A DNA stretch of 64,000 nucleotides from positions 4,000,001 to 4,064,000 of the forward strand of contig OY970067.1 in assembly GCA_963705305.1 (NCBI GenBank). Reading direction: 5' to 3'. Position 1 is the first letter of the stretch. Every line of letters starts with the position of its first letter. Made by a program: the position numbers and the translations under genes. Under the pieces are notes generated by a model, which worked only from the letters and a program-made list of their open reading frames with translations, searched no databases and was not told the origin of the DNA. This document shows, piece after piece, positions 31,062-44,308 of this stretch. This DNA comes from an uncultured Methylomirabilota bacterium. GTDB lineage: Bacteria; Methylomirabilota; Methylomirabilia; Methylomirabilales; 2-02-FULL-66-22.

Positions 31062-31111
31062 CCTGCCTTACAAGCAGGGGGTCGGTGGTTCGAAACCACC
31101 TTCGCCCACCA
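31062..31111 (+). tRNA. tRNA-Val(TAC) 3' fragment (att site, not a complete gene)
   Basis: CCTGC-CTTACAA-GCAGG anticodon arm, GGTGG-TTCGAAA-CCACC T arm, CCCACCA end; no D arm or 5' acceptor strand. Confidence 0.9.
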
Positions 31112-31116
31112 ATGAA

Positions 31117-31152
31117 ATCAGGGGGTTCCGAAAGAGCCCCCTGATCTTTTTT
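31117..31152 (+). terminator. Rho-independent terminator
   Basis: ATCAGGGGGTTC-CGAAA-GAGCCCCCTGAT followed by a T run. Confidence 0.75.
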
Positions 31153-31154
31153 CC

Positions 31155-31178
31155 AAAACGTGCCCGAAAACGTGCCCG
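31155..31178. repeat. Tandem 12-mer, probable integrase arm-type sites
   Basis: AAAACGTGCCCG twice, next to the att site. Confidence 0.6.
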
Positions 31179-31300
31179 TGAGGTCTTCTGGGCATCCCCG
31201 ACAATGAAAGGCTATAAACCGGTTGAGGGCACGGGTATACATTTCAGCTCCAGCTTGGTCGTAGTCCCGCGGGGCCGTATGACGGCTTAATTCCCCAGCG

Positions 31301-31717
31301 TTGCTTGGAACAAGATGTGTCCCCACCCTGGCGCTCCGGGCACTCGGGATTACGAGGGTCCGGCAGCATGATTTCAGACGCAGCTTCATCGCCCTCCATG
31401 TCGAAGCGGGCACCCACCCGAAGCTCATCCAGGAACGCGTGGGCCACAGCAACATCGGCCTCACGATGGACGTTTACGGGAAAATCACCGGGCGGATGGC
31501 CCTGTCTCCGGAGCAGGAGGCACGATTGGACGCGCTGGCGGCCAGGGCACTCCCGGCGCCGGTCCCGGTCAAGCCGGGGACGAATTCCGATGCGAACACC
31601 GCCGCCGACTCCGGCTGCAAACCCGCCAAGAATTCCGATCCCGAAGGAATCGCCTACCAGGATCGAGTGATGCTTGGGGAGCCAAGCACGGATCAAACGG
31701 GTCCCCAACAACAATAA
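31301..31717 (+). pseudogene. Tyrosine integrase C-terminal remnant
   Basis: RQHDFRRSF...HPKLIQERVGHSNI.LTMDVY (H-x-x-R, H, Y); N-terminal part missing. Confidence 0.85.
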
Positions 31718-31737
31718 TCGCTCACCCTCTGTTCAGT

Positions 31738-33060
31738 CTATAGCGTGTGAATGGCGCTCTCAATCCGGTCAAGTGTCTCATCAATATCCGTTGGCTTGTG
31801 AGCAGCGGAAAATCCGTGATGCCCTAGGGCCAGTCGTCCATAATTGTGGAAATAGATCCCTTGCTCAAAGCAGGACCGGATGAATCGGTAGCCCAAGTCC
31901 CCGTTAATTCGGGCGGCGTCCTGGTAGTTAGTCACTTCCGAGGTCACTCCGAAATAAATACCGAAACGGGCACCCAGCCCCTGCACCCGGGCCGGTACGC
32001 TGTGCGAGTCAAAGAGCTTAGCGAGACCGCCATAGAGGCGATCGGCATTGGCAAAGATCCGATCATAAAAGCCCGATTGGCTGATCTCCTCAAGAGATGC
32101 GAGCGCTGCCAGGACCGCAAATAAGTGGCCGGAGTATGTGCCGGAGTGGGCCGCCTGCCCGATAGGGCTGAACGCCTGCATGAAGTCTCGCCGGCCAGCC
32201 ACGACAGCCATTGGCAGCCCATTCGCCACCGCCTTAGCCAATGTGCACACGTCGGGTGTGACCCGGTAATACCCCTGGGCCCCACCGCTGGCCATCCGGA
32301 ACCCGCTCAGCACCTCGTCGAAGATTAACAGGATGCTATGCCGCGTAGCTTGCTCCCGGAGGAGCTCGAGCATGCCCGGGCGGGGGAGGATGCAGCCGGA
32401 GTTATAATTGACCGGCTCGCATATGATGGCGGCGAGTTCATCCGCATGCTCGCGCATTGCCTGGTCAAAGGCAGCGGGATCGTTCCAAGGGATGACGATC
32501 ACTAAGTCCGCGATCTGTGGCGGAACCCCCGCCGATTCGACCTGCGTCGGGACATAGGGATACGTGGGTAGCTCATCGCGCACTGGTCCATGAGCGTTCC
32601 ACATCACATAATCATGCAGACCATGAAAATGACCTTCAAATTTTAGGATCTTCTGCTTGCCGGTAACCGCACGCGCCAGGCGGATTGCGGCAAGGGTCGC
32701 CTCAGAACCGGAGTTGGCGAACCGGACCTGCTCGGCGCAGGGCACTAACGTACACAGCCGTTCGGCTAGGCGACTGTGGTACTCGGTGTCGTACGCGCAG
32801 ATCACACCCATGTCGAGGGCCTGCTCAATTGCCTTCCGGATTTTCGGATGGTTATGCCCGAGAAATGTCGCGCCATGGGAAAGGTTGTAGTCGATGTAGC
32901 TCCGACCATCCACGTCATACACCCGGCAGCCGTCGCCTCGCGTGAGATACAGAGGGTGGCCGAGGGCGGCATTGAAGCGAGCTGAACCGGATACGCCGGC
33001 CACGAGGTACCGACCAGCAAAATCAAAAAGCGCTGCGCTCTTCCCAGACGTTTGAGTCAT
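31738..33060 (-). CDS. Class-III PLP aminotransferase (GSA-aminomutase-like)
   Basis: NSGSEA, KFEGHFHG, IFDEVLSGFR, LAKAVANG.P, SGTY. Confidence 0.9.
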   Translation of the reverse strand: MTQTSGKSAALFDFAGRYLVAGVSGSARFNAALGHPLYLTRGDGCRVYDVDGRSYIDYNLSHGATFLGHNHPKIRKAIEQALDMGVICAYDTEYHSRLAERLCTLVPCAEQVRFANSGSEATLAAIRLARAVTGKQKILKFEGHFHGLHDYVMWNAHGPVRDELPTYPYVPTQVESAGVPPQIADLVIVIPWNDPAAFDQAMREHADELAAIICEPVNYNSGCILPRPGMLELLREQATRHSILLIFDEVLSGFRMASGGAQGYYRVTPDVCTLAKAVANGLPMAVVAGRRDFMQAFSPIGQAAHSGTYSGHLFAVLAALASLEEISQSGFYDRIFANADRLYGGLAKLFDSHSVPARVQGLGARFGIYFGVTSEVTNYQDAARINGDLGYRFIRSCFEQGIYFHNYGRLALGHHGFSAAHKPTDIDETLDRIESAIHTL

Positions 33061-33130
33061 CTCTCGCTCCTTTCAGAATACATGCGTGTGCCCACCACTA
33101 CAGCAACGCCTTCGTTCAAATACGAAAACA

Positions 33131-34118
33131 TCAGCACGATACCCCTACTTGCCGCGCCAAGCTTTGCAACTCGTTCCATGTCTCTTCGGGCAGCGGAATT
33201 CCCCTCAGGAGACGTTGCCGGCGGGTCCGCGTCTCCGGCTCGCCGGGCAGCATGACCTCCTCGATTCCTTCTGCGGCCGGGGTGGACTTGATCTTGGCGG
33301 CGAGGGCGGTCGCCTGGTTCGCAAATTGGTCGAACGGCACGAAACATGCGATATTCAGAGCCAGGGAAAACGTGCCGTTTCCACCCTCATACTCGGACAG
33401 GGCGGAGGGCGCCATGGCGGACAACGCGCCAGCGGTCAGCTCGATCATGATGCTCAGCGCCGAGCCCTTATGCCCGCCGAAGGGCAGCAGAGCCCCCCCG
33501 GCGAAAAAACGGCCGGGTTCAGGGAGGGGCGGCCGTCGCAGTCCAGCAACACGCCTGCTGCGACCTTTTCCCCCCGCGTCCGAGCGACGCGAAACTTACC
33601 TTCGGCCACGCTAGCCGTGGCAAAATCAAGCGACAGGGTCTCGTGCCCCGCACCGCAGGGCACCGCCCAAGCCAACGGATTTGTGCCGATTGCGGGGCGG
33701 CGTCCGCCGTGGGGCACAACAACGGCGTCCGTATTGCACATCGCCAGACCGATCATCCCAGCACCACTTAGCGTCGCCGTATACTCTCCCAGGCGCCCGA
33801 CGTGATTGCATCGGCCAATGGTGACAGCTCCCACGCCAAACCGCTCGGCCAGCTCGATCACCGTCTGAGCGGCCAGTCGCGCTGCCACTTGCCCCCACCC
33901 CCAGGCTCCGTCCACGTGCGCCGTGGCAAACTGTCGCCTTTCGATGGTGGGCTGGGCAGTCGGTTTAACCTGTCCTGTGCGAACATATGTCGCATACAGT
34001 GCAGGTTCGCTTCGATCAACGAGTCCTGGACCGCCCGCGCCGAGTCTGCAGGGGTTCCCAGGCCCTCTAGAATCCCCTGGGCGATGCAGCTCAAGTCCTC
34101 AACATGAAGAGTTGGCAT
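33131..34118 (-). pseudogene. Ldh_2-family (YiaK/AllD/ComC-like) oxidoreductase, multiply frameshifted
   Basis: Three frames: LIEANL; VDG..GWGQV, NHVGRLG.Y, GTNPLA, LDFAT; then GGHKG, EVMLPGE.E. Confidence 0.85.
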
Positions 34119-34283
34119 GAACACAGATCCTGTCTCGGCGCGAATCTCTATGACTTTCACACACTGGAGCAGACCGGGACGACACAACGAAGCTTCGATC
34201 GGGCGACCCTAGTAACGTCCCTTCTCCTCTTGCTCTCGGTGGGCGGAAACGGGTAGCTACCGAGCCGGGATTGCGCATTGAAT

Positions 34284-34949
34284 TCAGAGGATGCCGTATT
34301 CTGCAAATACCTGACGAATGCTGGTCCCCCGCGCCAGAATGCCCCGGACCTTGTTCTCGCCCGAGACCTTTTGCAGGGCGCGCGAGATTGCCTCATTTTC
34401 AACTGCTGCTGGGATCGCGACACTGCCATCTCCGTCAGCCACGACGAGGTCCCCGTCCTTCACGAGGACGCCGCCCACCTCGATCGGACAACGGATGGCG
34501 GTGACGTGAGCGCGGCCCTTCGAATCCGCGGCCCCACAGCCGGTGGTGAAGACCGGAAACCGCATGGCGGTGATCCCGGCCACGTCACGAGTCAATCCAT
34601 CGAAGATCGCCCCCCGCCCACCTCTAGCCCGGGCGTGGGTGCTCAGCAATTCCCCCCAAATGGAGCAGCGCCGGGAGCCGTGCGTGGTGCAGACAATGAC
34701 TTCCCCGGATCTCAACTCATCCAGCAGCGCGAGTTCGAGTTCGTACGGGTTCGCCAGGATCTCGTCCACGTTGGTCGCCAACATCGTGGCAGCGCGACCA
34801 ACGATTTTGGCCTCTGAATAGACCGGCCGAATGTCATACCGCATGACTTGATTCCGGTACCCAAGGTCGTCCAGGACGTCGGCCACCACGGCCGTATAGA
34901 GCTTCGTCGCGATCTCGTCGAAGTAGGATTCGGTCCAGTTCGTTTCCAC
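34284..34949 (-). CDS. RraA/HMG-aldolase family protein
   Basis: GGAGG RBS, GTG start; TAVVADVLD, WGELL, DG.TRD, GDLVVAD.DG. Confidence 0.88.
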   Translation of the reverse strand: METNWTESYFDEIATKLYTAVVADVLDDLGYRNQVMRYDIRPVYSEAKIVGRAATMLATNVDEILANPYELELALLDELRSGEVIVCTTHGSRRCSIWGELLSTHARARGGRGAIFDGLTRDVAGITAMRFPVFTTGCGAADSKGRAHVTAIRCPIEVGGVLVKDGDLVVADGDGSVAIPAAVENEAISRALQKVSGENKVRGILARGTSIRQVFAEYGIL

Positions 34950-35050
34950 GCTATCCTCCCTCACATCCCGAGCGACTGTCGGACCGATGTTCCGAAACGC
35001 GTCCCAAGGTTTTGCACCAAGCCTTATTCGCCTTATTCCTGCCACGCGGA

Positions 35051-36250
35051 TCAGAAAAGGGGTACCGCGGGAATCCACTCGGGCCGGTGCGGATCATAGA
35101 ATTCGTTGACGGCCCCTGCCTCTTGGTATGCCCGGTGATACTTCTCGACTTTCGTTGGGTCCAGCGTCACTCCGAGACCGGCGCCAGTGGGAACGGTAAA
35201 ATGACCATCCTCATACGCAAAGGGCTGCGTGATCACGTCATCTGCCTGATCATGGTAATGACTATCAATGGCATAGCGCAGATACGGACTCGCCGCCGCG
35301 AGATGCAGCATGGCCGCCGTGGAGATGCCGAGCTCCCGATCGCTGTGCATGCCCACACCGAGCTGGAACGCTTCCGCCACTGCCATCATGCGCTGATTCT
35401 GACGGAACCCTCCCCAGAAATGAATGTCGCTTAAGATCACGTCCACGCTCCGGGCGCGAATGCCCGGGGCGAGTTGTTCCCACGCCACGAGACACATGTT
35501 CGTGGCCAGGGGAATCGGCACAGCCTTGCGAACTTGGCTCATCCCCTCCATGTTTAGCGTCGGGTCCTCTAGATACTCCAAATCTATCCCTTCCGCGAGG
35601 AGGCGATGCCCGACGCGAATGGAAGTCTCCACCGACCACGCTGCGTTGGGGTCCCACCGGAGCGGGGAGGCAGGGAATTCTTTGCGGAGGAGCCGGACGA
35701 CGCGGAGCTCCTCATCGGGGGGAAGGACCCCCCCCTTAAACTTGATGACCCGAAAGCCGTACTCGTCGACAAGCTGCCGGGCACGGTCCACCATGGCTTC
35801 CGGGGTGGACTCGCCCCCGACAGTCCCGGTCGCATCCCAGTAGCGGTAGAAGAGATAGGCACTCGCCTCGATGCAGTGGCGCGTGGCCCCGCCCAGCAGC
35901 TTGTACAGAGGAAGGTTGAGGGCTTTCCCGGCCGCATCCAAGCAGGCCATTTCGATTCCTGCCCGAGTGACCGCCGGTACGGTGGTTTCATAACTCGTGA
36001 AAAATACGCTCAACCGGTGGTGCATCACCCCCGTGTCCAAGGGGTCGAGCCCGACGAGATACGGTCGCGCAACGTCGATCGCGTGTTCCGTCCCTGGCCC
36101 CCCGTACGTTTCGCCGATGCCGATAATCCCGTCGTCGGTATGGAGTTCGATGAGACTCCGGGTGGTCCCGACCTCGACCCCGAGGCTCCACCGCAAAGGC
36201 GCCTTCATGGGGACCGTGACCGAGATCGCCTTCACATCCGTGATTTTCAT
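35051..36250 (-). CDS. Enolase-superfamily acid-sugar dehydratase (glucarate dehydratase-like)
   Basis: KFKGG, DPNAAWS, YLEDP, LATNM, D.HFWGG, GMHS. Confidence 0.9.
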   Translation of the reverse strand: MKITDVKAISVTVPMKAPLRWSLGVEVGTTRSLIELHTDDGIIGIGETYGGPGTEHAIDVARPYLVGLDPLDTGVMHHRLSVFFTSYETTVPAVTRAGIEMACLDAAGKALNLPLYKLLGGATRHCIEASAYLFYRYWDATGTVGGESTPEAMVDRARQLVDEYGFRVIKFKGGVLPPDEELRVVRLLRKEFPASPLRWDPNAAWSVETSIRVGHRLLAEGIDLEYLEDPTLNMEGMSQVRKAVPIPLATNMCLVAWEQLAPGIRARSVDVILSDIHFWGGFRQNQRMMAVAEAFQLGVGMHSDRELGISTAAMLHLAAASPYLRYAIDSHYHDQADDVITQPFAYEDGHFTVPTGAGLGVTLDPTKVEKYHRAYQEAGAVNEFYDPHRPEWIPAVPLF

Positions 36251-36278
36251 GTGTCATTCCTTCGCCCGTCAGGGCGCT

Positions 36279-37061
36279 TCAGGGATGCAGAATGGCCTGG
36301 AGGAAGGTCCGGGTCCGCTCGTTCCGGGGACTGTCAAAGACTTGCTCGGGCGAGCCCTCTTCCACCACCTTGCCCCCCGCCATTAGAACCACCCGGTTCG
36401 CCACGTAGCGGGCAAATCCCATCTCGTGGGTAACCACCACCATCGTCATCCCATCCTTCGCGAGCGTACGGATCACGTCGAGCACCTCGGCGGTCATCTC
36501 CGGATCGAGTGCGGAGGTGACTTCATCGAACAACATGAGATCCGGGTTCATGGCGAGCGCGCGCGCAATGGCCACGCGTTGCTGCTGCCCCCCCGAGAGT
36601 TGAATCGGGAGGTACAGGGCCTTGTCCTCAAGACCAACCTTCGCCAGGAGGTTCATCGCCTGGGATTCCGCCTCCCCTCGTGGAACTCGGCGGACGTTGA
36701 TCGGCGCCAAGGCGATGTTGTCCAGGGCGGAAAGATGGGGGAACAGGTTGTATTGCTGGAACACGATCCCGATCTCCATCCGCAGGCGGCGCAGCGGCTC
36801 CCCCGCCAACTCAAACCCCGGCTGGCCCGGCAGCTTCCGCGCCAGAGTTTGCCCTTTGAATAGGATCTCCCCAGCGGTGATCGACTCCAGCCGGTTCAGG
36901 CATCGCAGAAACGTGGTCTTCCCAGACCCGCTCGGGCCAATGACCGCGACGACCTCGCCGCGCGTAATATTCAGACTGACCCCGGTTAAAACGTGCACAC
37001 GGCCAAAGGACTTGTAGATGTCCCGGGTCTGCACGACCGTCGCGTCACTCTGCTCACTCAT
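36279..37061 (-). CDS. Polar amino-acid ABC ATP-binding protein
   Basis: [34 protein letters not shown]. Confidence 0.94.
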
Positions 37062-37065
37062 GTGC

Positions 37066-37785
37066 TTACGCCTCCGTCCCCGACCGCGCGAATAGCTGGG
37101 CTCTCTTCGCCTGCCTTGGCTCCGGAATAGCCTTCATTTTTCGCTCCACCCATGTCGCGAGGAGCGCCCACGGATAGCAGATGATGAAATAGAGCACGGC
37201 CACCTCAGTGAAAATGGTCAAATACTTGTACGTGGTCGCTCCAAGCAAGATGCCTGCGAACATCAGTTCCTGAATGGTGATTACCGACAGGAGTGAAGTG
37301 TCCTTAAAGAGTCCGAGGAGATAGTTCACGGTGGGCGGGAGGGAAACGCGCGCGGCCTGCGGCAGAATGACCAAGCGCATGGTCTGCCAGTACGAGAGTC
37401 CCAGAGATTCGGCCGCCTCCGTCTGGGTTTTCGGCACGGAATTTATTCCGGCGCGATATACCTCCGAGAGATAGGCCGTGTAGTTAACGCTCATCCCGAT
37501 AATACCGGCAACGATGGCGGGGAGCGTGACCCCGAAAAACGGAAACACGTAGAAGATGTAGTAGAGCTGCATCAACGCCGGCGTGCCTCGGATGAATTCC
37601 ACGTAGGCGATCATCGGCACCCGCAGCATCCGGAACCGGGAGATCCGGGCCAAGGCCACGAGCACTCCCGCGACGATTGAAATCGTCATGATGACAAAGG
37701 TCAGAATAATCGTGTACTCCGCCCCCTTCAGAAGCGTGGGGAGATACTCCATGAGGTCTACCCATCGAATGGCCGGAACGTGCAT
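37066..37785 (-). CDS. Polar amino-acid ABC permease
   Basis: [30 protein letters not shown]. Confidence 0.93.
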
Positions 37786-37871
37786 GATTCACTCCCGAGC
37801 AGTCGTTGGTCGATTTGTGAGCGCGAGCCCGAGGCCGGCAGTGTCCGGCCTCGGGCAGCTCGCCTTTTCGA

Positions 37872-38705
37872 CTACTTGATGAGATTCACCTCGGACAACC
37901 CGTACTTCTGTAAGATGGCCAATAGGGTGCCATCGGCCTTCATCTTGTTGAGCTCCGCGTCAAAGGCCGCCTTGAGCGTTACGTCCTCCTTTCGGAACCC
38001 GATGCCGGAGGGTCGGGGCGCCTTGCCGGCCCAGACCCGCAGGATCTCAAGGTCGGGCTCGGGGTTGACGACGAACGCATAGCCCGTTGTGGTCTCATCC
38101 GCGAGGGCGCCATCAATCCTCCCCGCCTTCACGTCCGCGAACATGTCCCCATGCTCCTTGTAGGGGACAGCTATCGCACCCGGCACCGCCTTAATTTCGT
38201 CGAGATTCGTCGCGCCCAGGATGCCTCCCATCCTCTTGCCGACCCAGTCAGCCTTTCCTTTGATGTTCTTGGGGTTGCCCTTGCGGACGACGATCGCATC
38301 CCCATACTGGTAAATCGGCTCGGAGAAGAGGATCTCCTCTTTCCGCTTATCCGTGATGCTCATTCCGACCGACATCAGGTCCCATCGACCTGCCTGCAGC
38401 CCCGGGATCAGCCCCGACCAATCCGCGACGATGAAATTCCATTTTTCGACGCCGATCTTTTTCAAGATGTACTCGACGATGTCGTTGTCAATGCCTTTCC
38501 ACTTGCCGTCGCTCGGGTCGAACCAGTCATGGGGAGGTTCATTGTACGAGGCAAGCAGGGCGTACTTCGTGGTCTTGAGCTTGGTGAGCGTGTCTGCGGC
38601 ATTGGCTGGGGCACACTGAACGGCCAAGAACACGCCCACGATGGAGACTGCCAGCAACCAGAAGAGGAGCGCGAATGGGGAATGCTTTTCTCGTCGCTTC
38701 ATCAC
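37872..38705 (-). CDS. Family-3 amino-acid ABC substrate-binding protein
   Basis: Signal peptide; G.D.D, LIPGLQAGRWD, FSEP.Y, DGTL..I..KYG. Confidence 0.92.
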   Translation of the reverse strand: MMKRREKHSPFALLFWLLAVSIVGVFLAVQCAPANAADTLTKLKTTKYALLASYNEPPHDWFDPSDGKWKGIDNDIVEYILKKIGVEKWNFIVADWSGLIPGLQAGRWDLMSVGMSITDKRKEEILFSEPIYQYGDAIVVRKGNPKNIKGKADWVGKRMGGILGATNLDEIKAVPGAIAVPYKEHGDMFADVKAGRIDGALADETTTGYAFVVNPEPDLEILRVWAGKAPRPSGIGFRKEDVTLKAAFDAELNKMKADGTLLAILQKYGLSEVNLIK

Positions 38706-38917
38706 AGACTCCCTCCTTCGAAAGCAACAGTACCCTCAGGGCCAAAAAGGTCCGTCCTCCCTTCGCTTTGCCACCTCCTTTCAAGTCACGGGGCTGAATC
38801 TCTTCACGTTAAGCAAGCTGCGACCAGAATGAATCCGGCCGCCGCCCACGTGAACTAGTATCTCCCTTAGAAGAACTCGTAAATCGGATAGCTCTCCAAA
38901 TCTCTGAACCCGAAGGA

Positions 38918-39709
38918 TCAGGATCTCCGGGCGCACGGTGCAGAGTGCAAACCGCCTTCTCCTCGCTGCCATGCCTCTAGGCGCTCTTGAAACGCCCTCG
39001 AGACATCCTGCGCTGTCGGCGATCCGTGACGGACCCCCGAATGCCGGCTATCTCGCTGCTCATCCTGCGGGAAAAACCGCATCGGCAACACGGTGAGGTC
39101 CTTCTGTAGCCACTCGATCATTCGTCCAGCGTTCTTGGCGGCCCAGGCGTTGTACATGCCTTCGTGGAATTGTTGAACATCAGAGAGATTCACTTCCCTC
39201 TGCAAGTGCATGTAATAGATGTAGGGACTCACCCGGGCCCAGAGGAGATCTATGTGACGCATCAACACAGCTGATGCCCCATACGAGTAGATCAGATGAT
39301 GAAAGGCGAAATTGGCTCGGACATATTTCGCTGCTGACTTCTGGAGGTGGATCGCCGTTTGGTCCAACAAAACCCTCGCCTTGGCCAAGGCGGTGTCCGG
39401 CCGCAACTTACATGAGCGTTGAGCCGTTAAGGACTCCAGCAGAAGTCGGATCTGGAAGATCTCCTGCATCTCCGGAACCGACAGGGTGTTCACTCGGATC
39501 CGGCGATTGGTCTCGATGATCACGACTCGTTCCGATTCGAGTTGCCAAACCGCCTCCCGAACAGGCATGAGGCTGACGCCGAACTCTCGTGCCAGCCCGC
39601 GCAGGCTTAGTGTCTCGCCGGGGAGAACACCAGCGAAAGCGATTTTCTCTCGCAGTTGGTCGTAAACCTGCTGGCGCAGGGTTATTGTGGAGAGTTTCGT
39701 GAAACGCAT
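38918..39709 (-). CDS. GntR (FadR/FCD) family regulator
   Basis: LA.EFGVS.MPVREA, N.AFH. Confidence 0.88.
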   Translation of the reverse strand: MRFTKLSTITLRQQVYDQLREKIAFAGVLPGETLSLRGLAREFGVSLMPVREAVWQLESERVVIIETNRRIRVNTLSVPEMQEIFQIRLLLESLTAQRSCKLRPDTALAKARVLLDQTAIHLQKSAAKYVRANFAFHHLIYSYGASAVLMRHIDLLWARVSPYIYYMHLQREVNLSDVQQFHEGMYNAWAAKNAGRMIEWLQKDLTVLPMRFFPQDEQRDSRHSGVRHGSPTAQDVSRAFQERLEAWQRGEGGLHSAPCARRS

Positions 39710-40033
39710 TGGTCCACCCCGGGATCACCCATATCAATGGTGTCGCATTTCAGTCCGCGCAAGAAACGCGTGGGGCCGCGCTGAGATGGTTCTCGTTTGG
39801 CAGCAAGGCTTCGGCTCCAGGTCCGCGGTGCGAGTGTGCTCACGCGTGGATGCCGGCCCTTTGAGACTCGGTTGGGCAGAGTGCCAGGTATGTTTCCCAT
39901 GATACCGAGCGGCCGGCTCCCGCTCTGCGACTCGCGTGACCTCGGTCATCGCGACGCTCCGAACGCTCTGATGCCAAGACCTGAAGGCAATGGCTCGCTT
40001 GGGCCGGTGATAGTCGGCACGTCGAATTCTAAC

Positions 40034-40068
40034 TGTGATCACATATATCATTCCTGAGCTGTTGTCAA
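40034..40068 (-). promoter_or_regulatory. Promoter with palindromic operator for the leftward gntR operon
   Basis: TTGACA on the minus strand (40068-40063), a TATATG-like -10, and palindrome TGTGATCACA at 40034-40043. Confidence 0.55.
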
Positions 40069-40211
40069 CACGAAAATGAGGTCGTTTGACCAAACGGAGG
40101 CTGAAGGAGCACTTCCACTTCCGGACCCGCACTCGAGTTGTTTGTGGATTCGCGACCAAGTTGAGTGGCGCCTTTGGCCAGGCACGCCCCCCGTGCTTCA
40201 GCATAATTCCT

Positions 40212-40709
40212 GGCACTATGCCGGGCAAAGCAAGGAGAGGACGTCCAAGTGCTCGTGAATCAAGGATGCCGCCCATATCCGTCCGCACTGTCGCCCGGCA
40301 TAGGTTTCTTGGGATTACGGCTGGTTGAGGAGCGCCGGCAACTCGTCGCAAGCCCCATAGCGACTGGGCGTTCCGTCGGGTGGCGTGGTCTTGGCGAGGA
40401 TTTCCTCCTTGAGTGCGGGGTTGGCCTCGAGGTAGATCTGCGTGGTTTCGACCGATTCACCGTCTGCTGGGAGGAGCCTTCGGCGTGTATCTCAACCGCA
40501 AAGGCATCACTGTACGGACCCAGCGGGCCCTCATGCAGGCGCTGAACTGTTGGGGCATGTCTGGAGAGTGATGGGTCATGTGCCTCCGCCTTGTGGAATG
40601 GGTTACTCAGAGGAGACACCGAACTATGCCGGGCGTGCAACTCTGAAGCACGCCATGGATGGGACAACGCTCGCTCTACCCGGCATAGTCCGGAGGTCGG
40701 CATAGTGCC
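40212..40709 (-). mobile_element. Internally deleted RIT (recombinase-in-trio) element
   Basis: 12-bp IR GGCACTATGCCG/CGGCATAGTGCC, several CTATGCCG repeats; RitA-like N-terminus joined to a RitC-like C-terminus. Confidence 0.75.
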
Positions 40710-40876
40710 GGCTATGCTGGGGCCGGCATAGCAGGCAAACATTTGGCAAACAGGAGCCCCCAGAACAAGGCAAAATAGGCTTGGGCGGGCTGAAAGGCGA
40801 AATGCTTAACTCCTTGACAACAAAAGCCATTCTGAAATAGCCAGGAACGGAATTACTGTTTTGGCCTTGCCTTCTT

Positions 40877-42260
40877 TCAAGAAACTGTGCTACCGGCCGG
40901 AGTGGCCGGCACGAGCTGAAACCCGAGGGCCCGGGCCTGGGCGCGGAGCCGGGATTCGGTCCGGCGCCGGTGGTCGGATTCCGCAGCCGCCAGGCGGCTC
41001 TCGTCATAGGGCTCGTGGGTGGTCAGTAAGTGATAAATGATCCGCGCGAGCTTGTGGGCGGTGGCGGTGATCGCCTTGGGGGCCCCGAGCTTGGCGCGCA
41101 TCCGGCGGAAGAACACCCCGAGCACCGACGGGCTGCGGGACAGGCTCTGGGCGGCGAGCCGCAAGGCCTGCGCCACCCGGTGCTTGACGTGGCGCGTTTT
41201 CACGGACAGGATCTTCCCGCCGGAGATCCGATTATCGGGACAGAGGCCGAGCCACGAGGTGAAGTGGTCATTGGCAGGGAACGGGGACAGGTCGGCCCCG
41301 AGCTCCGTGAACAGGGTGGAGACCGTGGAGGTCTGCAGGCCGGGCACCTGCGTGAGGTCGGTCCCCAGGATCCGGTAGAGCTCGGTGCGGAGATCGAAGC
41401 CCGGAGGGACGGGGATGCCGCGCGGTGTGCGGCGAGACCCTTTGGAGGGTGGGAGCGGGTGCGTGGCGGGATCGATGGTGGAGGCGAACGTGCCGAGCCG
41501 CCGCTGGATCTCCGTCTCGCACTCCCCGATCAGGTGCTGGGCATGGCGGTAGGAGGCCAGCGCCTGGCGGAGCGTGAAGCGGGGCTCCGACCGGGAGTCC
41601 CCCACGAGCGCTTTCGCGATGGTTTCCGCGGAGGCCTTGACGCGGTGGTCGCGGTGGCCGGCCAGCACCTGGGGATCCCGCTCCCCCGCCAGGAGGGCGT
41701 CCAGGATGGCCAGGCCGGTGACGCCGGTGAGATCCGTGAGGACGTGGTGGAGCTGGAGGTTCATCTGGGTGAGCGCCTTCTGCATGTGCTGGGTGGGGGC
41801 CGCGGCGGCCTGCACCAGCCCGTCGCGGTGCCGGAGCAGGGTGCGCACAGCGCAGACCGCCTCGGGCGGCCGGAAGGAGGCGCGGAGGAGACCCACGGAG
41901 TGCAGGTACTGGAGCCACTGGCAGTCCTGGACGTCGCTCTTCCGCCCGGGGACGTGCTTGACGTGGCGCGCGTTCACCAGGCAGACCTCGAAGCCGCGGG
42001 TCTCCAGGATCTGGGAGAGCGGGATCCAGGACCACGCCCGTGGCCTCCATCGCGACCGCGGTGATCCCGCACTGCCGGAGCCAGTCCGCGAGGGCGTGCA
42101 GGTCCTCCGTGAAGGTCCCGAAGCGCCGGATGGGCTCGGGGTTCCGGTCGAGGGGCACGCAGGCGTAGATCTCGGTGGCCCCGAGGTCGATGCCCGCGGC
42201 GTGCGGCTGCAGGATCGGCATGGTGACGGGGCGGGTGGTGCGGGGCAGGCGTCTGGCCAT
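40877..42260 (-). pseudogene. IS110 DEDD recombinase, frameshifted near 42032
   Basis: AAGIDLG, AMEATGV in one frame; WIPL, KSDVQD, F.SWLGLCP...SGGK, TA.AHKLARI in the next. Confidence 0.92.
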
Positions 42261-42289
42261 GGGGGCTCCTCCAGGTGGGGGGTGAAGGC

Positions 42290-42500
42290 CAGAACCGGCA
42301 GGCGGCCCAGGTCGTGCCGAACGGCAGGTACTCTTTCAATCGGGATCACCACCCGACGGCGGACCCCCATCGGGGGCGTAACCAGTGACTTGCGCACGCG
42401 ACCTGGCACCACGCTTACAAACGGGCTGAACTCCTCGGCACCAGTCGTATCGGTCGGTGTATTGCTTGCCTCGGCCAGCCATGGTGCCGGTACGATACAG
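42290..42500 (-). ncRNA. Putative IS110 bridge RNA
   Basis: ~300-nt non-coding leader with two homologous ACTGGT...CCCG-N-TTG(T/A)AAG-N-GT units matching the two junctions; ends approximate. Confidence 0.65.
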
Positions 42501-42567
42501 GAGACGCACGCGCCAGGAAAGTCAGTTTCTTTTGTCATTGCCCCGGCCCACGCGGGCAGGGTCGCGG

Positions 42568-42612
42568 CTTACAAGCAGGGGGTCGGTGGTTCGAAACCAC
42601 CTTCGCCCACCA
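42568..42612 (+). tRNA. tRNA-Val(TAC) 3' fragment, second att copy
   Basis: Identical to 31067-31111. Confidence 0.9.
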
Positions 42613-42623
42613 CGGAACTCTGC

Positions 42624-42670
42624 GGAAACACACACCTCCAGAGAAGGTCACCCTGGAGGTGTGTGTTTCC
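42624..42670. terminator. 18-bp perfect hairpin after the tRNA-Val fragment
   Basis: GGAAACACACACCTCCAG-N11-CTGGAGGTGTGTGTTTCC. Confidence 0.7.
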
Positions 42671-44161: not shown

Positions 44162-44190
44162 ATGCAGAGGTCGTGCGAGCACGTGATATA

Positions 44191-44249
44191 CGGGACTCAA
44201 AATCCCGCGAGGGTAACCTCATGAGGGTTCGATTCCCTCCCCCGGCACC
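44191..44249 (+). tRNA. tRNA-Leu(CAA) 3' fragment / pseudo-tRNA
   Basis: CGGGA-CTCAAAA-TCCCG, long variable arm, GAGGG-TTCGATT-CCCTC, CCCCGGCACC; no recognisable D arm. Confidence 0.8.
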
Positions 44250-44308
44250 CTAATTGTGCAATGGATGTCTGGGGTCAGAGGAGCCGAAGGGGCAAGCGGA
44301 AAATGCGC

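Follow-up and report, generated by a model that had tools for sequence, protein, structure and literature searches.

What brings an insertion sequence (IS) to the exact boundary between a genomic island and a fragment of a tRNA gene? The question is raised by a stretch of 64,000 nucleotides (nt) from the genome of an uncultured Methylomirabilota bacterium (contig OY970067.1, positions 4,000,001 to 4,064,000), hereafter the window; coordinates are those of the window unless a genome position is indicated. An IS of the IS110 family lies here between the right arm of an island and the 3' half of a tRNA-Val gene. The original prediction, made from the letters of the window, held that two short words in the leader of this IS are the guides of a bridge RNA and that one of them is set to the anticodon loop of tRNA-Val. 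Our analysis leaves little doubt about the core of this proposal: the element is very probably an IS110-group IS whose 307-nt left end encodes a two-module bridge RNA addressed to the tRNA-Val anticodon loop. The parts of the element are as follows.

40876..42567, minus strand: body of the IS110-group insertion sequence, 1,692 bp (Pfam domains, genome BLAST, family junction rule and same-genus ends)
40877..42260, minus strand: transposase pseudogene, about 93 codons in one frame and then about 376 in the next (tblastn with intact orthologues)
42261..42567, minus strand: non-coding left end encoding the putative bridge RNA, 307 nt (leader model and consensus fold)
40874..40875, plus strand: core dinucleotide CT at the IS right end, AG on the IS strand (donor guides and right ends of the family; same-genus relatives L082 and L083)
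42568..42569, plus strand: second copy of the core, CT, equal to C32 and U33 and forming the first two bases of the tRNA-derived block

The IS110 identity originally proposed was borne out by Pfam, with DEDD_Tnp_IS110 (PF01548, E = 8.4e-12) on the downstream frame of the transposase and Transposase_20 (PF02371, E = 6.2e-10) as the C-terminal transposase domain. Together with the long left end and the near absence of a right end, these domains place the element in the IS110 group of the IS110 family. The translation contains GIDLG, AMEATG and KSDVQD, which we take to be the catalytic D/E/D/D of the DEDD domain. The N-terminal 93 amino acids align with orthologues in the adjacent frame (tblastn), and the two collinear tblastn pieces, with no further stop, indicate a single frameshift near 42025–42035, in agreement with the earlier description of the gene as frameshifted. 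A metagenome contig identical over 41851–42081 has the same letters across the frameshift region, but may derive from the very sample that yielded this genome. Because its transposase is frameshifted the window copy is dead, which bears on its activity and not on its family membership. The TGA stop codon ends 1 nt short of the core, and a repeat search detected no terminal inverted repeat of the IS. Genome BLAST mapped one copy only in the 5.65-Mb genome.

The ends were fixed by comparison with a family set of 79 loci encoding transposase relatives (48–79% amino-acid identity). Across this family the right ends read, on the IS strand, GTT[TC][CA] followed by a 7-mer ending in AG, and every guide also ends in AG. 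Two relatives from the same genus, L082 and L083, share the right end of the window copy, ...CAGTTTCTTGAAAG (...TTTCTTGAAAG), and in both it is followed by unrelated DNA. The body therefore extends from 40876 to 42567 and is bordered by a duplicated core CT. The original prediction had proposed a CTT/AAG core with a register ambiguous by one CTT; the family rule and the same-genus ends replace it by the dinucleotide CT/AG. On this assignment the pre-insertion site would have read ...GGCCTTGCCTT-CT-TACAAGCAGG. Target duplications of 3 nt (AAG, in the window) and of 5 nt (GTAAG, in the relative L137) were considered and rejected, since L137, when set against the uninterrupted arm at genome position 843273 (TTTAC-CT-TACAAG), is consistent with the usual duplication of a 2-nt core. 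By analogy with L137, the extra AAG of the window is probably arm sequence; no uninterrupted homologue of the window's own arm was found in 20 same-genus genomes.

How, then, is such an element directed to its target? The answer lies in three short features of the leader.

42414..42421, minus strand: long target guide UUUGUAAG, 6 nt plus the core-pairing AG, directly after the invariant CCCG of hairpin H1 (covariation with the left junction)
42412..42413, minus strand: two handshake-like nucleotides, CG, just 3' of the target guide
42333..42340, minus strand: donor guide AUUGAAAG, equal to the IS right end plus core (CTTGAAAG, 40874–40881 on the plus strand)

The letters on which the original prediction was built are all in place: GCTTACAA at 42413–42420 is repeated at 42567–42574 and TCTTTCAA at 42332–42339 is repeated at 40873–40880, and the same holds for the att words described below. 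A hidden Markov model (HMM) of the leader, built from homologues, matches the window copy at E = 7.9e-62. It yielded 66 rows in the 79 loci and, with the window included, 63 rows in which both 8-mers are complete. When the leader of the window copy was first aligned with those of four homologues, the 8 nt behind CCCG proved different in each sequence, and in 5/5 they equalled the left flank. Far from being an invariant scaffold, the target 8-mer has the form N6 + AG with 35 distinct versions in the family rows, and it covaries with the insertion site: 55 of the 63 rows extend upstream by 170 nt or more, and in 43 of these the last 7 nt of the 8-mer reappear 100–170 nt upstream, representing 26 of the 35 distinct guides. 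When each locus was given the guide of another locus (200 trials), the mean was 0.26 matches and the maximum 3. For the donor 8-mer, which follows AUCCCG, the 7-mer was found again at the right end of the IS in 46 of 52 rows, whereas controls averaged 3.4 and never exceeded 9. At least two further left junctions, those of L081 and L167, match their guides through a single rG:dT wobble (TTGT.AG versus TTAT.AG), a pairing reported as tolerated for IS621 in Durrant 2024 (PMC11208160). Since the guides are hypervariable and track the flanks, neither of the refuting outcomes named in the original prediction, invariant scaffold or unrelated targets, was borne out, and the guide reading stands. What the comparison supports is a bridge RNA in which one leader 8-mer serves as target guide and the other as donor guide, the former being set to the tRNA-Val anticodon loop.

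Another detail of the prediction had to be changed. The extra base of its 8-mers is not part of a guide; on the target unit it occupies a handshake-like position matching the first base of the IS. The nucleotides that follow the target guide equal IS bases 1 and 2 in 32/32 and 25/32 unique elements, respectively, and shuffling gave for base 2 a mean of 9.8 and a maximum of 19. The window copy is an exception at base 2, with CG on the guide side and an IS starting with CC, whereas its same-guide relatives start with CG. A matrix of covariation between leader columns and flanks was also tried; it recovered the long guide only and was set aside as partly circular, the boundaries having been set with the guide.

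The site that the target guide would address, and the sequences that surround it, are the following.

42568..42612, plus strand: tRNA-Val(UAC) 3' half from the anticodon loop to CCA, an attachment-site (att) remnant identical to 31067–31111 and to the 3' half of the intact tRNA gene
42568..42576, plus strand: the stretch CTTACAAGC within this half, predicted to pair with the guide RNA
31063..31111, plus strand: the other att copy, a tRNA-Val 3' half that carries no IS and whose left side is tRNA-like (CCTGC-CT-TACAAGC)
40780..40873, plus strand: right arm of the island, which would have abutted the tRNA half before the IS arrived (homology to other arms)

The 45-mer CTTACAAG...CCACCA is present in two exact copies, at 31067–31111 and 42568–42612 (0 expected), and CTGCCTTACAAGCAGG occurs once, at 31063–31078 (0.01 expected by chance). 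Neither att copy is intact, and ARAGORN found no tRNA-Val within the window. The sole intact tRNA-Val(TAC) gene of the genome lies 2.3 Mb away on the complementary strand (genome positions 1744941–1745013), and its 3' half is the same as 42568–42612. The IS separates the island arm from the 45-bp tRNA-Val(UAC) 3' half, with the break just after C32-U33; in tRNA terms it sits directly 5' of the anticodon U34-A35-C36, which confirms the location at the anticodon loop originally claimed. The left flank, TTGCCTT, is not the rest of the anticodon stem and only partly resembles CTGCCTT of the tRNA. GCCTT is best regarded as the end of an island arm and not as collinear tRNA sequence; at related junctions the arm preceding this CT-TACAA ends in TTTAC, CTTAC or GCTGC.

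Further tRNA-Val(TAC) 3' halves lie outside the window near genome positions 843,230, 1,630,054 and 1,634,533. The arms that precede the other 3' halves are related to 40780–40873 and share a motif of the type ATTCTG..A.TA..CC.G.AA. These homologies of arm and tRNA 3' half identify the place of insertion as an 'island right arm + tRNA 3' half' junction. A shorter remnant, consisting of the loop and the following stem, is found at genome position 4,089,215. As separate observations, the att copy at 31063–31111 has behind it the terminator-like sequence that is also found after the intact tRNA gene, and contains the full 9-mer target of the IS, yet carries no insertion; and the two halves near 1.63 Mb sit 110 kb and 115 kb downstream of the intact tRNA, resembling a tandem island array. 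The presence in the window of two tRNA halves with no intact tRNA nearby suggests a rearrangement.

Is the association with tRNA-Val peculiar to this one copy? A scan of metagenome contigs for the guide within its scaffold gave at least 119 stretches, of which 80 were analysed, and eight of these 80 proved to be true leaders by HMM. In four of the elements the same guide is found in tRNA-Val-type sequence at the same position. The left junction of L157, L164 and L137 reads GGTTT, then C or T, then GAACCACCGACCCCCTGCTTGTAAG up to the IS; it belongs to 30–46 nt of an antisense tRNA-Val 3' half ending in ...CCCCCTGCTTGTAAG, a position identical to that in the window. In the fourth, L145, the sequence at the left junction is tRNA-like but diverged (...GACCCCTTGTTTGTAAG). 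Right flanks are readable in only two of the four supporters, L137 and L145, and both are island arms homologous to those of this genome; the same two elements have intact transposases of 458 amino acids. The supporting elements are 78–83% identical to the window IS and differ from it in their flanks and first IS bases, and therefore represent separate insertion events. The lineage would in that case have kept its address over about 20% of DNA divergence. The eight stretches from viral contigs included no convincing leader, one being marginal (E = 0.0033).

Does the leader fold as a bridge RNA would? Two more elements of the target module are needed to answer this.

42422..42443, minus strand: hairpin H1 of the target module, UGGUGC...GCCCG (consensus fold)
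42444..42454, minus strand: 5'-side loop of the target module, ACCGAUACGAC, the position of a short second target guide

The consensus fold was obtained with RNAalifold from 46 non-redundant leaders, and pairs were counted on the resulting structure. Its five helices have 96.9% of their cells paired, with changes on both sides in 15 of the 22 pairs, and its covariation score of 0.514 compares with 0.207 for shuffles (none of 500 as high) and 0.06–0.12 for slid partners. The target module consists, in order, of an outer stem S1, a loop of 9 nt (11 nt in the window), hairpin H1, the 8-nt guide, two nucleotides and the return strand of S1. The donor module has the same build inside stem S2, in which 6/6 pairs covary. 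Taken singly, the leader of the window has a minimum free energy fold no better than shuffles (z = +1.2), and no Rfam family was found in it either at the gathering score or at E up to 10.

The second guides are far less evident than the long ones. In 44 unique pairs, the window being left out because of its 11-nt loop, loop positions 2–6 show complementarity to the opening five bases of the right flank at 2.16 and 2.11 positions of five in two registers, against 1.38 +/- 0.14 and 1.21 +/- 0.13 in the controls. The signal is clear in some subgroups, with CCC opposite GGG in a cyanobacterial one and GUUCG opposite CGAAC in one with a REP-like (repetitive extragenic palindromic) target; it is absent in others, including the lineage of the window and multi-copy sets with unrelated right flanks. 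The reverse complement of the core plus 4 nt, which would be the canonical right-flank guide, has no consistent leader position in the family, and an unbiased 5-mer scan of the leader detected a strong right-flank guide nowhere. It gave a weak signal (7 versus 0.95), due to a single cyanobacterial subgroup, for a segment that is complementary to the IS start and located some 20 nt beyond the donor guide. The word GGUCGCG of the window leader, complementary to IS bases 2–8, was considered as a candidate and rejected as a programmable guide, being conserved scaffold in elements whose IS starts differ. The first bases of the IS, 42560–42567 (CCGCGACCCTG), are nearly complementary to the 5' strand of stem S2 (CCAGGUCGCG, 42385–42397, minus strand) and similar to its 3' strand; the RNA segment 42385–42397 is conserved scaffold in relatives with differing IS starts, so that it is a doubtful candidate for a second guide on the donor side.

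These features can be assembled into a probable mechanism. Each module of the RNA has an outer stem around a 5' loop, the hairpin UGGUG...CCCG and an 8-nt guide ending in AG. The target guide UUUGUAAG, together with the G that precedes it, could form nine consecutive pairs, one of them U.G, with the DNA strand reading CTTACAAGC, which corresponds to C32 to C40 of tRNA-Val(UAC). On the donor side, AUUGAAAG would serve as the guide for the joined ends of a circular form of the element; strand exchange by the DEDD/serine recombinase at the CT core common to target and donor would then leave the IS directly 5' of the anticodon. The anatomy, the covariation of guide with flank and the repeated occurrence at tRNA-Val on independent contigs are direct observations; by homology with IS621, we infer that the RNA is expressed, that the intermediate is circular and that the chemistry is of the same kind. 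As the tRNA 3' halves at the right junctions of islands are redundant, an insertion there would destroy no working tRNA. The survival of insertions in pseudo-tRNA copies may thus reflect selection, and it is plausible that insertions are seen only in redundant halves because hits in the single intact gene are lost.

Several observations weigh against this interpretation, or at least narrow it. An exact 7-mer match of the target guide is absent in 12 of the 55 rows. The loop of the window, ACCGAUACGAC, matches neither its right flank AAGGC nor the tRNA, and this guide is known with four right flanks, whose first bases are AAGG, GTAA, GCAG and CGAT; recognition here therefore looks one-sided, resting on the long guide. 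The leader analyses gave no confident candidate for a second guide on the donor side. No empty site, with the island arm joined directly to the tRNA half, was found in 20 same-genus genomes, and no contig from four metagenome runs joins across the IS, these runs containing fragments of related IS copies and two identical pieces. Four of the eight same-guide leaders do not add to the pattern: L153 lies on a contig with no left flank, L167 matches only through its one wobble and beside IS-end-like sequence, L166 is a weak HMM hit with no match, and in L106 the leader is found downstream of the 3' end of an IS110-type transposase. Finally, the nearest relatives, which come from the same genus (84%), have different guides and follow the rule elsewhere, so that the shared guide may be convergent and not inherited, and among 251 genomes of the phylum the guide-in-scaffold pattern CCCGTTTGTAAGYNTGG occurs in one, that of the window itself.

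Some of these relatives deserve mention in their own right. An example of the rule at work elsewhere is a same-genus genome with four copies carrying GCUGUUAG, in which 3/3 readable left junctions end in CTGTTAG. In L106 the leader-like sequence, at about 860–1140 in IS orientation, directly follows the transposase 3' end, which reflects either an IS1111-like arrangement or two abutting elements. In L013 (two copies head to tail), L082, L064 and L052 the target guide is UUUAGAAG, identical to the right end plus core of the family itself, and elements with this guide sit directly behind another IS copy or IS-end-like sequence. Both facts point to self-targeting, which would build tandem arrays.

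What, then, is the relation of the element to tRNA genes and islands? Tentatively, and with less than even confidence, we propose that an RNA-guided IS110 lineage has converged on the tRNA site used by tyrosine recombinases, by means of essentially one 8–9-nt guide against the tRNA-Val(UAC) anticodon loop and with a guide order mirrored relative to IS621, and that it lives as a parasite of island junctions, for which the duplicated tRNA half would be a safe harbour. An account that shares this mechanism and differs on specialisation alone sees the association with tRNA-Val as a by-product: the IS would go to any CTTACAAG, an AT-rich word that in a GC-rich genome is mostly derived from tRNA-Val, with no specialisation for island junctions. 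This too is a real possibility that falls short of an even chance. Five of the eight CTTACAAGC sites in this genome of 66% GC are tRNA-Val-derived, among them the intact gene, which carries the same 9-mer target as the tRNA half, and three unoccupied remnants, and the apparent one-sidedness of recognition points in the same direction. On the other side, the window copy and both relatives with a known right flank are at island-arm junctions and none is in an intact tRNA, a pattern that survivorship alone could explain.

It is also possible, though less likely than not, that the insertion is half-matched or off-target. The preferred site would then need a right-flank match as well (a UAC loop with GTA, as provided by an arm ...TTAC), and only the long guide was matched here. 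Insertion at half-matched sites has been reported for IS621 (bioRxiv 10.64898/2026.08.31.748434). The element L137, with the right flank GTAAGG and the loop ...GAUACGAC, in which UAC can pair with GTA, would be an instance of the full match, and in the cyanobacterial and REP-targeting subgroups the right flank begins with three or four conserved bases that complement the loop. Yet the right flank fits in only one of the four cases known, no insertion occupies the site at genome position 843273, whose arm TTTAC offers a full match, and the register is uncertain, the loop having 11 nt here against 9 in most of the family. The failure of the unbiased 5-mer scan to reveal a strong right-flank guide also argues against a two-sided requirement.

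The exact placement of the IS between the arm and the tRNA-derived block invites the idea that the insertion is adaptive for the island or its host, in that an island whose arm is parted from the att core would be held where it is. We consider this improbable. The 9.8-kb island (31112–40873) carries metabolic and transport genes, namely a class-III aminotransferase, an RraA-like aldolase, an enolase-superfamily enzyme, an ABC transporter and a GntR regulator, and no integrase domain was found in its open reading frames (ORFs) of at least 110 amino acids; the island was therefore probably immobile already. As to the further suggestion that the intact tRNA is spared, that gene carries the same 9-mer target. 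Very improbable is an arrival of the IS on the island, already inside attP, as an attP split by 1.7 kb would be a poor substrate for integration, the same IS lineage occurs at junctions with different arms and the left junction obeys the guide rule. That the 7–8-nt matches are chance or invariant scaffold and the leader an ordinary 5' untranslated region, as the ease with which single 7-mers recur, the fold energy of the leader and the lack of an Rfam match might suggest, is refuted by hypervariable guide positions that track the flanks (43/55 and 46/52, far above their controls) within a scaffold conserved with compensatory pairs.

Three features in the neighbourhood of the IS may be recorded. 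Between the GntR gene and the arm, about 1.1 kb (39734–40870) contains only ORFs with no Pfam hits and could be what remains of the integration module of the island. Just after the tRNA remnant, at 42624–42670, there is a perfect 18-bp inverted repeat with an 11-nt spacer, which is terminator-like and has no T run. ARAGORN reports a tRNA-Leu(CAA) at 44163–44250, which scores 29.8 bits with the Rfam tRNA model against a threshold of 29.

The element is of a known kind, and what is new is the class of its natural target, a tRNA anticodon loop reached by RNA–DNA pairing. The natural targets of bridge RNAs have so far been mostly REP-like repeats, attC sites and transposon ends. Our literature search found no IS110 element aimed at the tRNA anticodon loop; supplementary target tables, which lay outside the search, could hold cases. 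The address would be reached by RNA–DNA pairing at a site that island integrases reach by means of a protein. If the lineage has indeed converged on the tRNA site as tentatively proposed above, this would suggest that one long guide and the core can suffice for natural targeting, and that the polarity of the modules is evolutionarily flexible. The reversed guide order, and the frequent lack of a detectable second target guide, bear on the question of how much pairing a bridge recombinase needs, for which the 35 natural pairs of guide and target make a ready test set. Island att junctions can be split by such elements, and tRNA halves beside IS110 ends should therefore be treated as junctions in annotation.

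How does this system compare with those already described? In the bridge RNA of IS621 the modules are ordered as stem, left target guide (LTG, 9 nt), stem-loop, right target guide (RTG, 4 nt, ending in AG opposite the CT core), handshake and stem, and the LTG has the sequence of the left flank plus core (Durrant 2024, PMC11208160; Hiraizumi 2024, PMC11208158). The element of the window resembles IS621 in its recombinase with DEDD and Transposase_20 domains, its long non-coding left end upstream of the gene and its near-absent right end. It also shares an RNA with pseudo-symmetric target and donor modules, a long guide identical in sequence to left flank plus core, two handshake-like bases after a guide, and a CT core on the strand with which the guide pairs. 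It differs from IS621 in that, in its subfamily, the hairpin is preceded by the short guide and followed by the long one, which in RNA order thus occupies the place of the IS621 RTG. The core, moreover, is AG on the transposase strand, and the long guide has 8 nt against 9. Reading the DNA on the opposite strand, with a CT core and a guide ending in AG, brings the two arrangements into agreement. Unlike in IS621, the second guide is weak or unused in several lineages, including that of the window, and the natural target is a tRNA anticodon loop instead of a REP-type repeat. In Durrant 2024 (PMC11208160) tRNA appears only as an analogy.

SeekRNAs are RNAs from the non-coding region of related elements, with short stretches that match both strands of the target and with natural reprogramming among relatives; in IS1111-type seekRNAs the two target-matching regions stand in the reverse of their order in IS110-type ones (Siddiquee 2024, PMC11187229). 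The window element is like these in having a non-coding RNA with target-matching stretches. Its RNA precedes the transposase, as in IS110-type elements, but its order is opposite to that of IS621. Because a reverse order is already in print (Siddiquee 2024, PMC11187229), the reversed guides can be counted as known diversity; the word tRNA is absent from that report. ISPpu10 and other IS110 elements target REP sequences or hairpins (bioRxiv 10.64898/2026.03.19.712850). The target described here is similarly conserved, repeated and hairpin-forming, the anticodon stem-loop being a hairpin in DNA also, with the difference that at the site in the window island arm takes the place of the stem's 5' strand.

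The closest parallel in terms of the site itself is with the tyrosine integrases of islands and phages that act at tRNA anticodon loops, which share with this element the same DNA site and the duplicated tRNA 3' half as a landmark. Integrases commonly cross over in the anticodon loop, and in this genome the tRNA identity of the att remnants begins at or near CTTACAAG. Unlike the integrases, the element would recognise this site by RNA and not by protein, and would act on it through a different chemistry.

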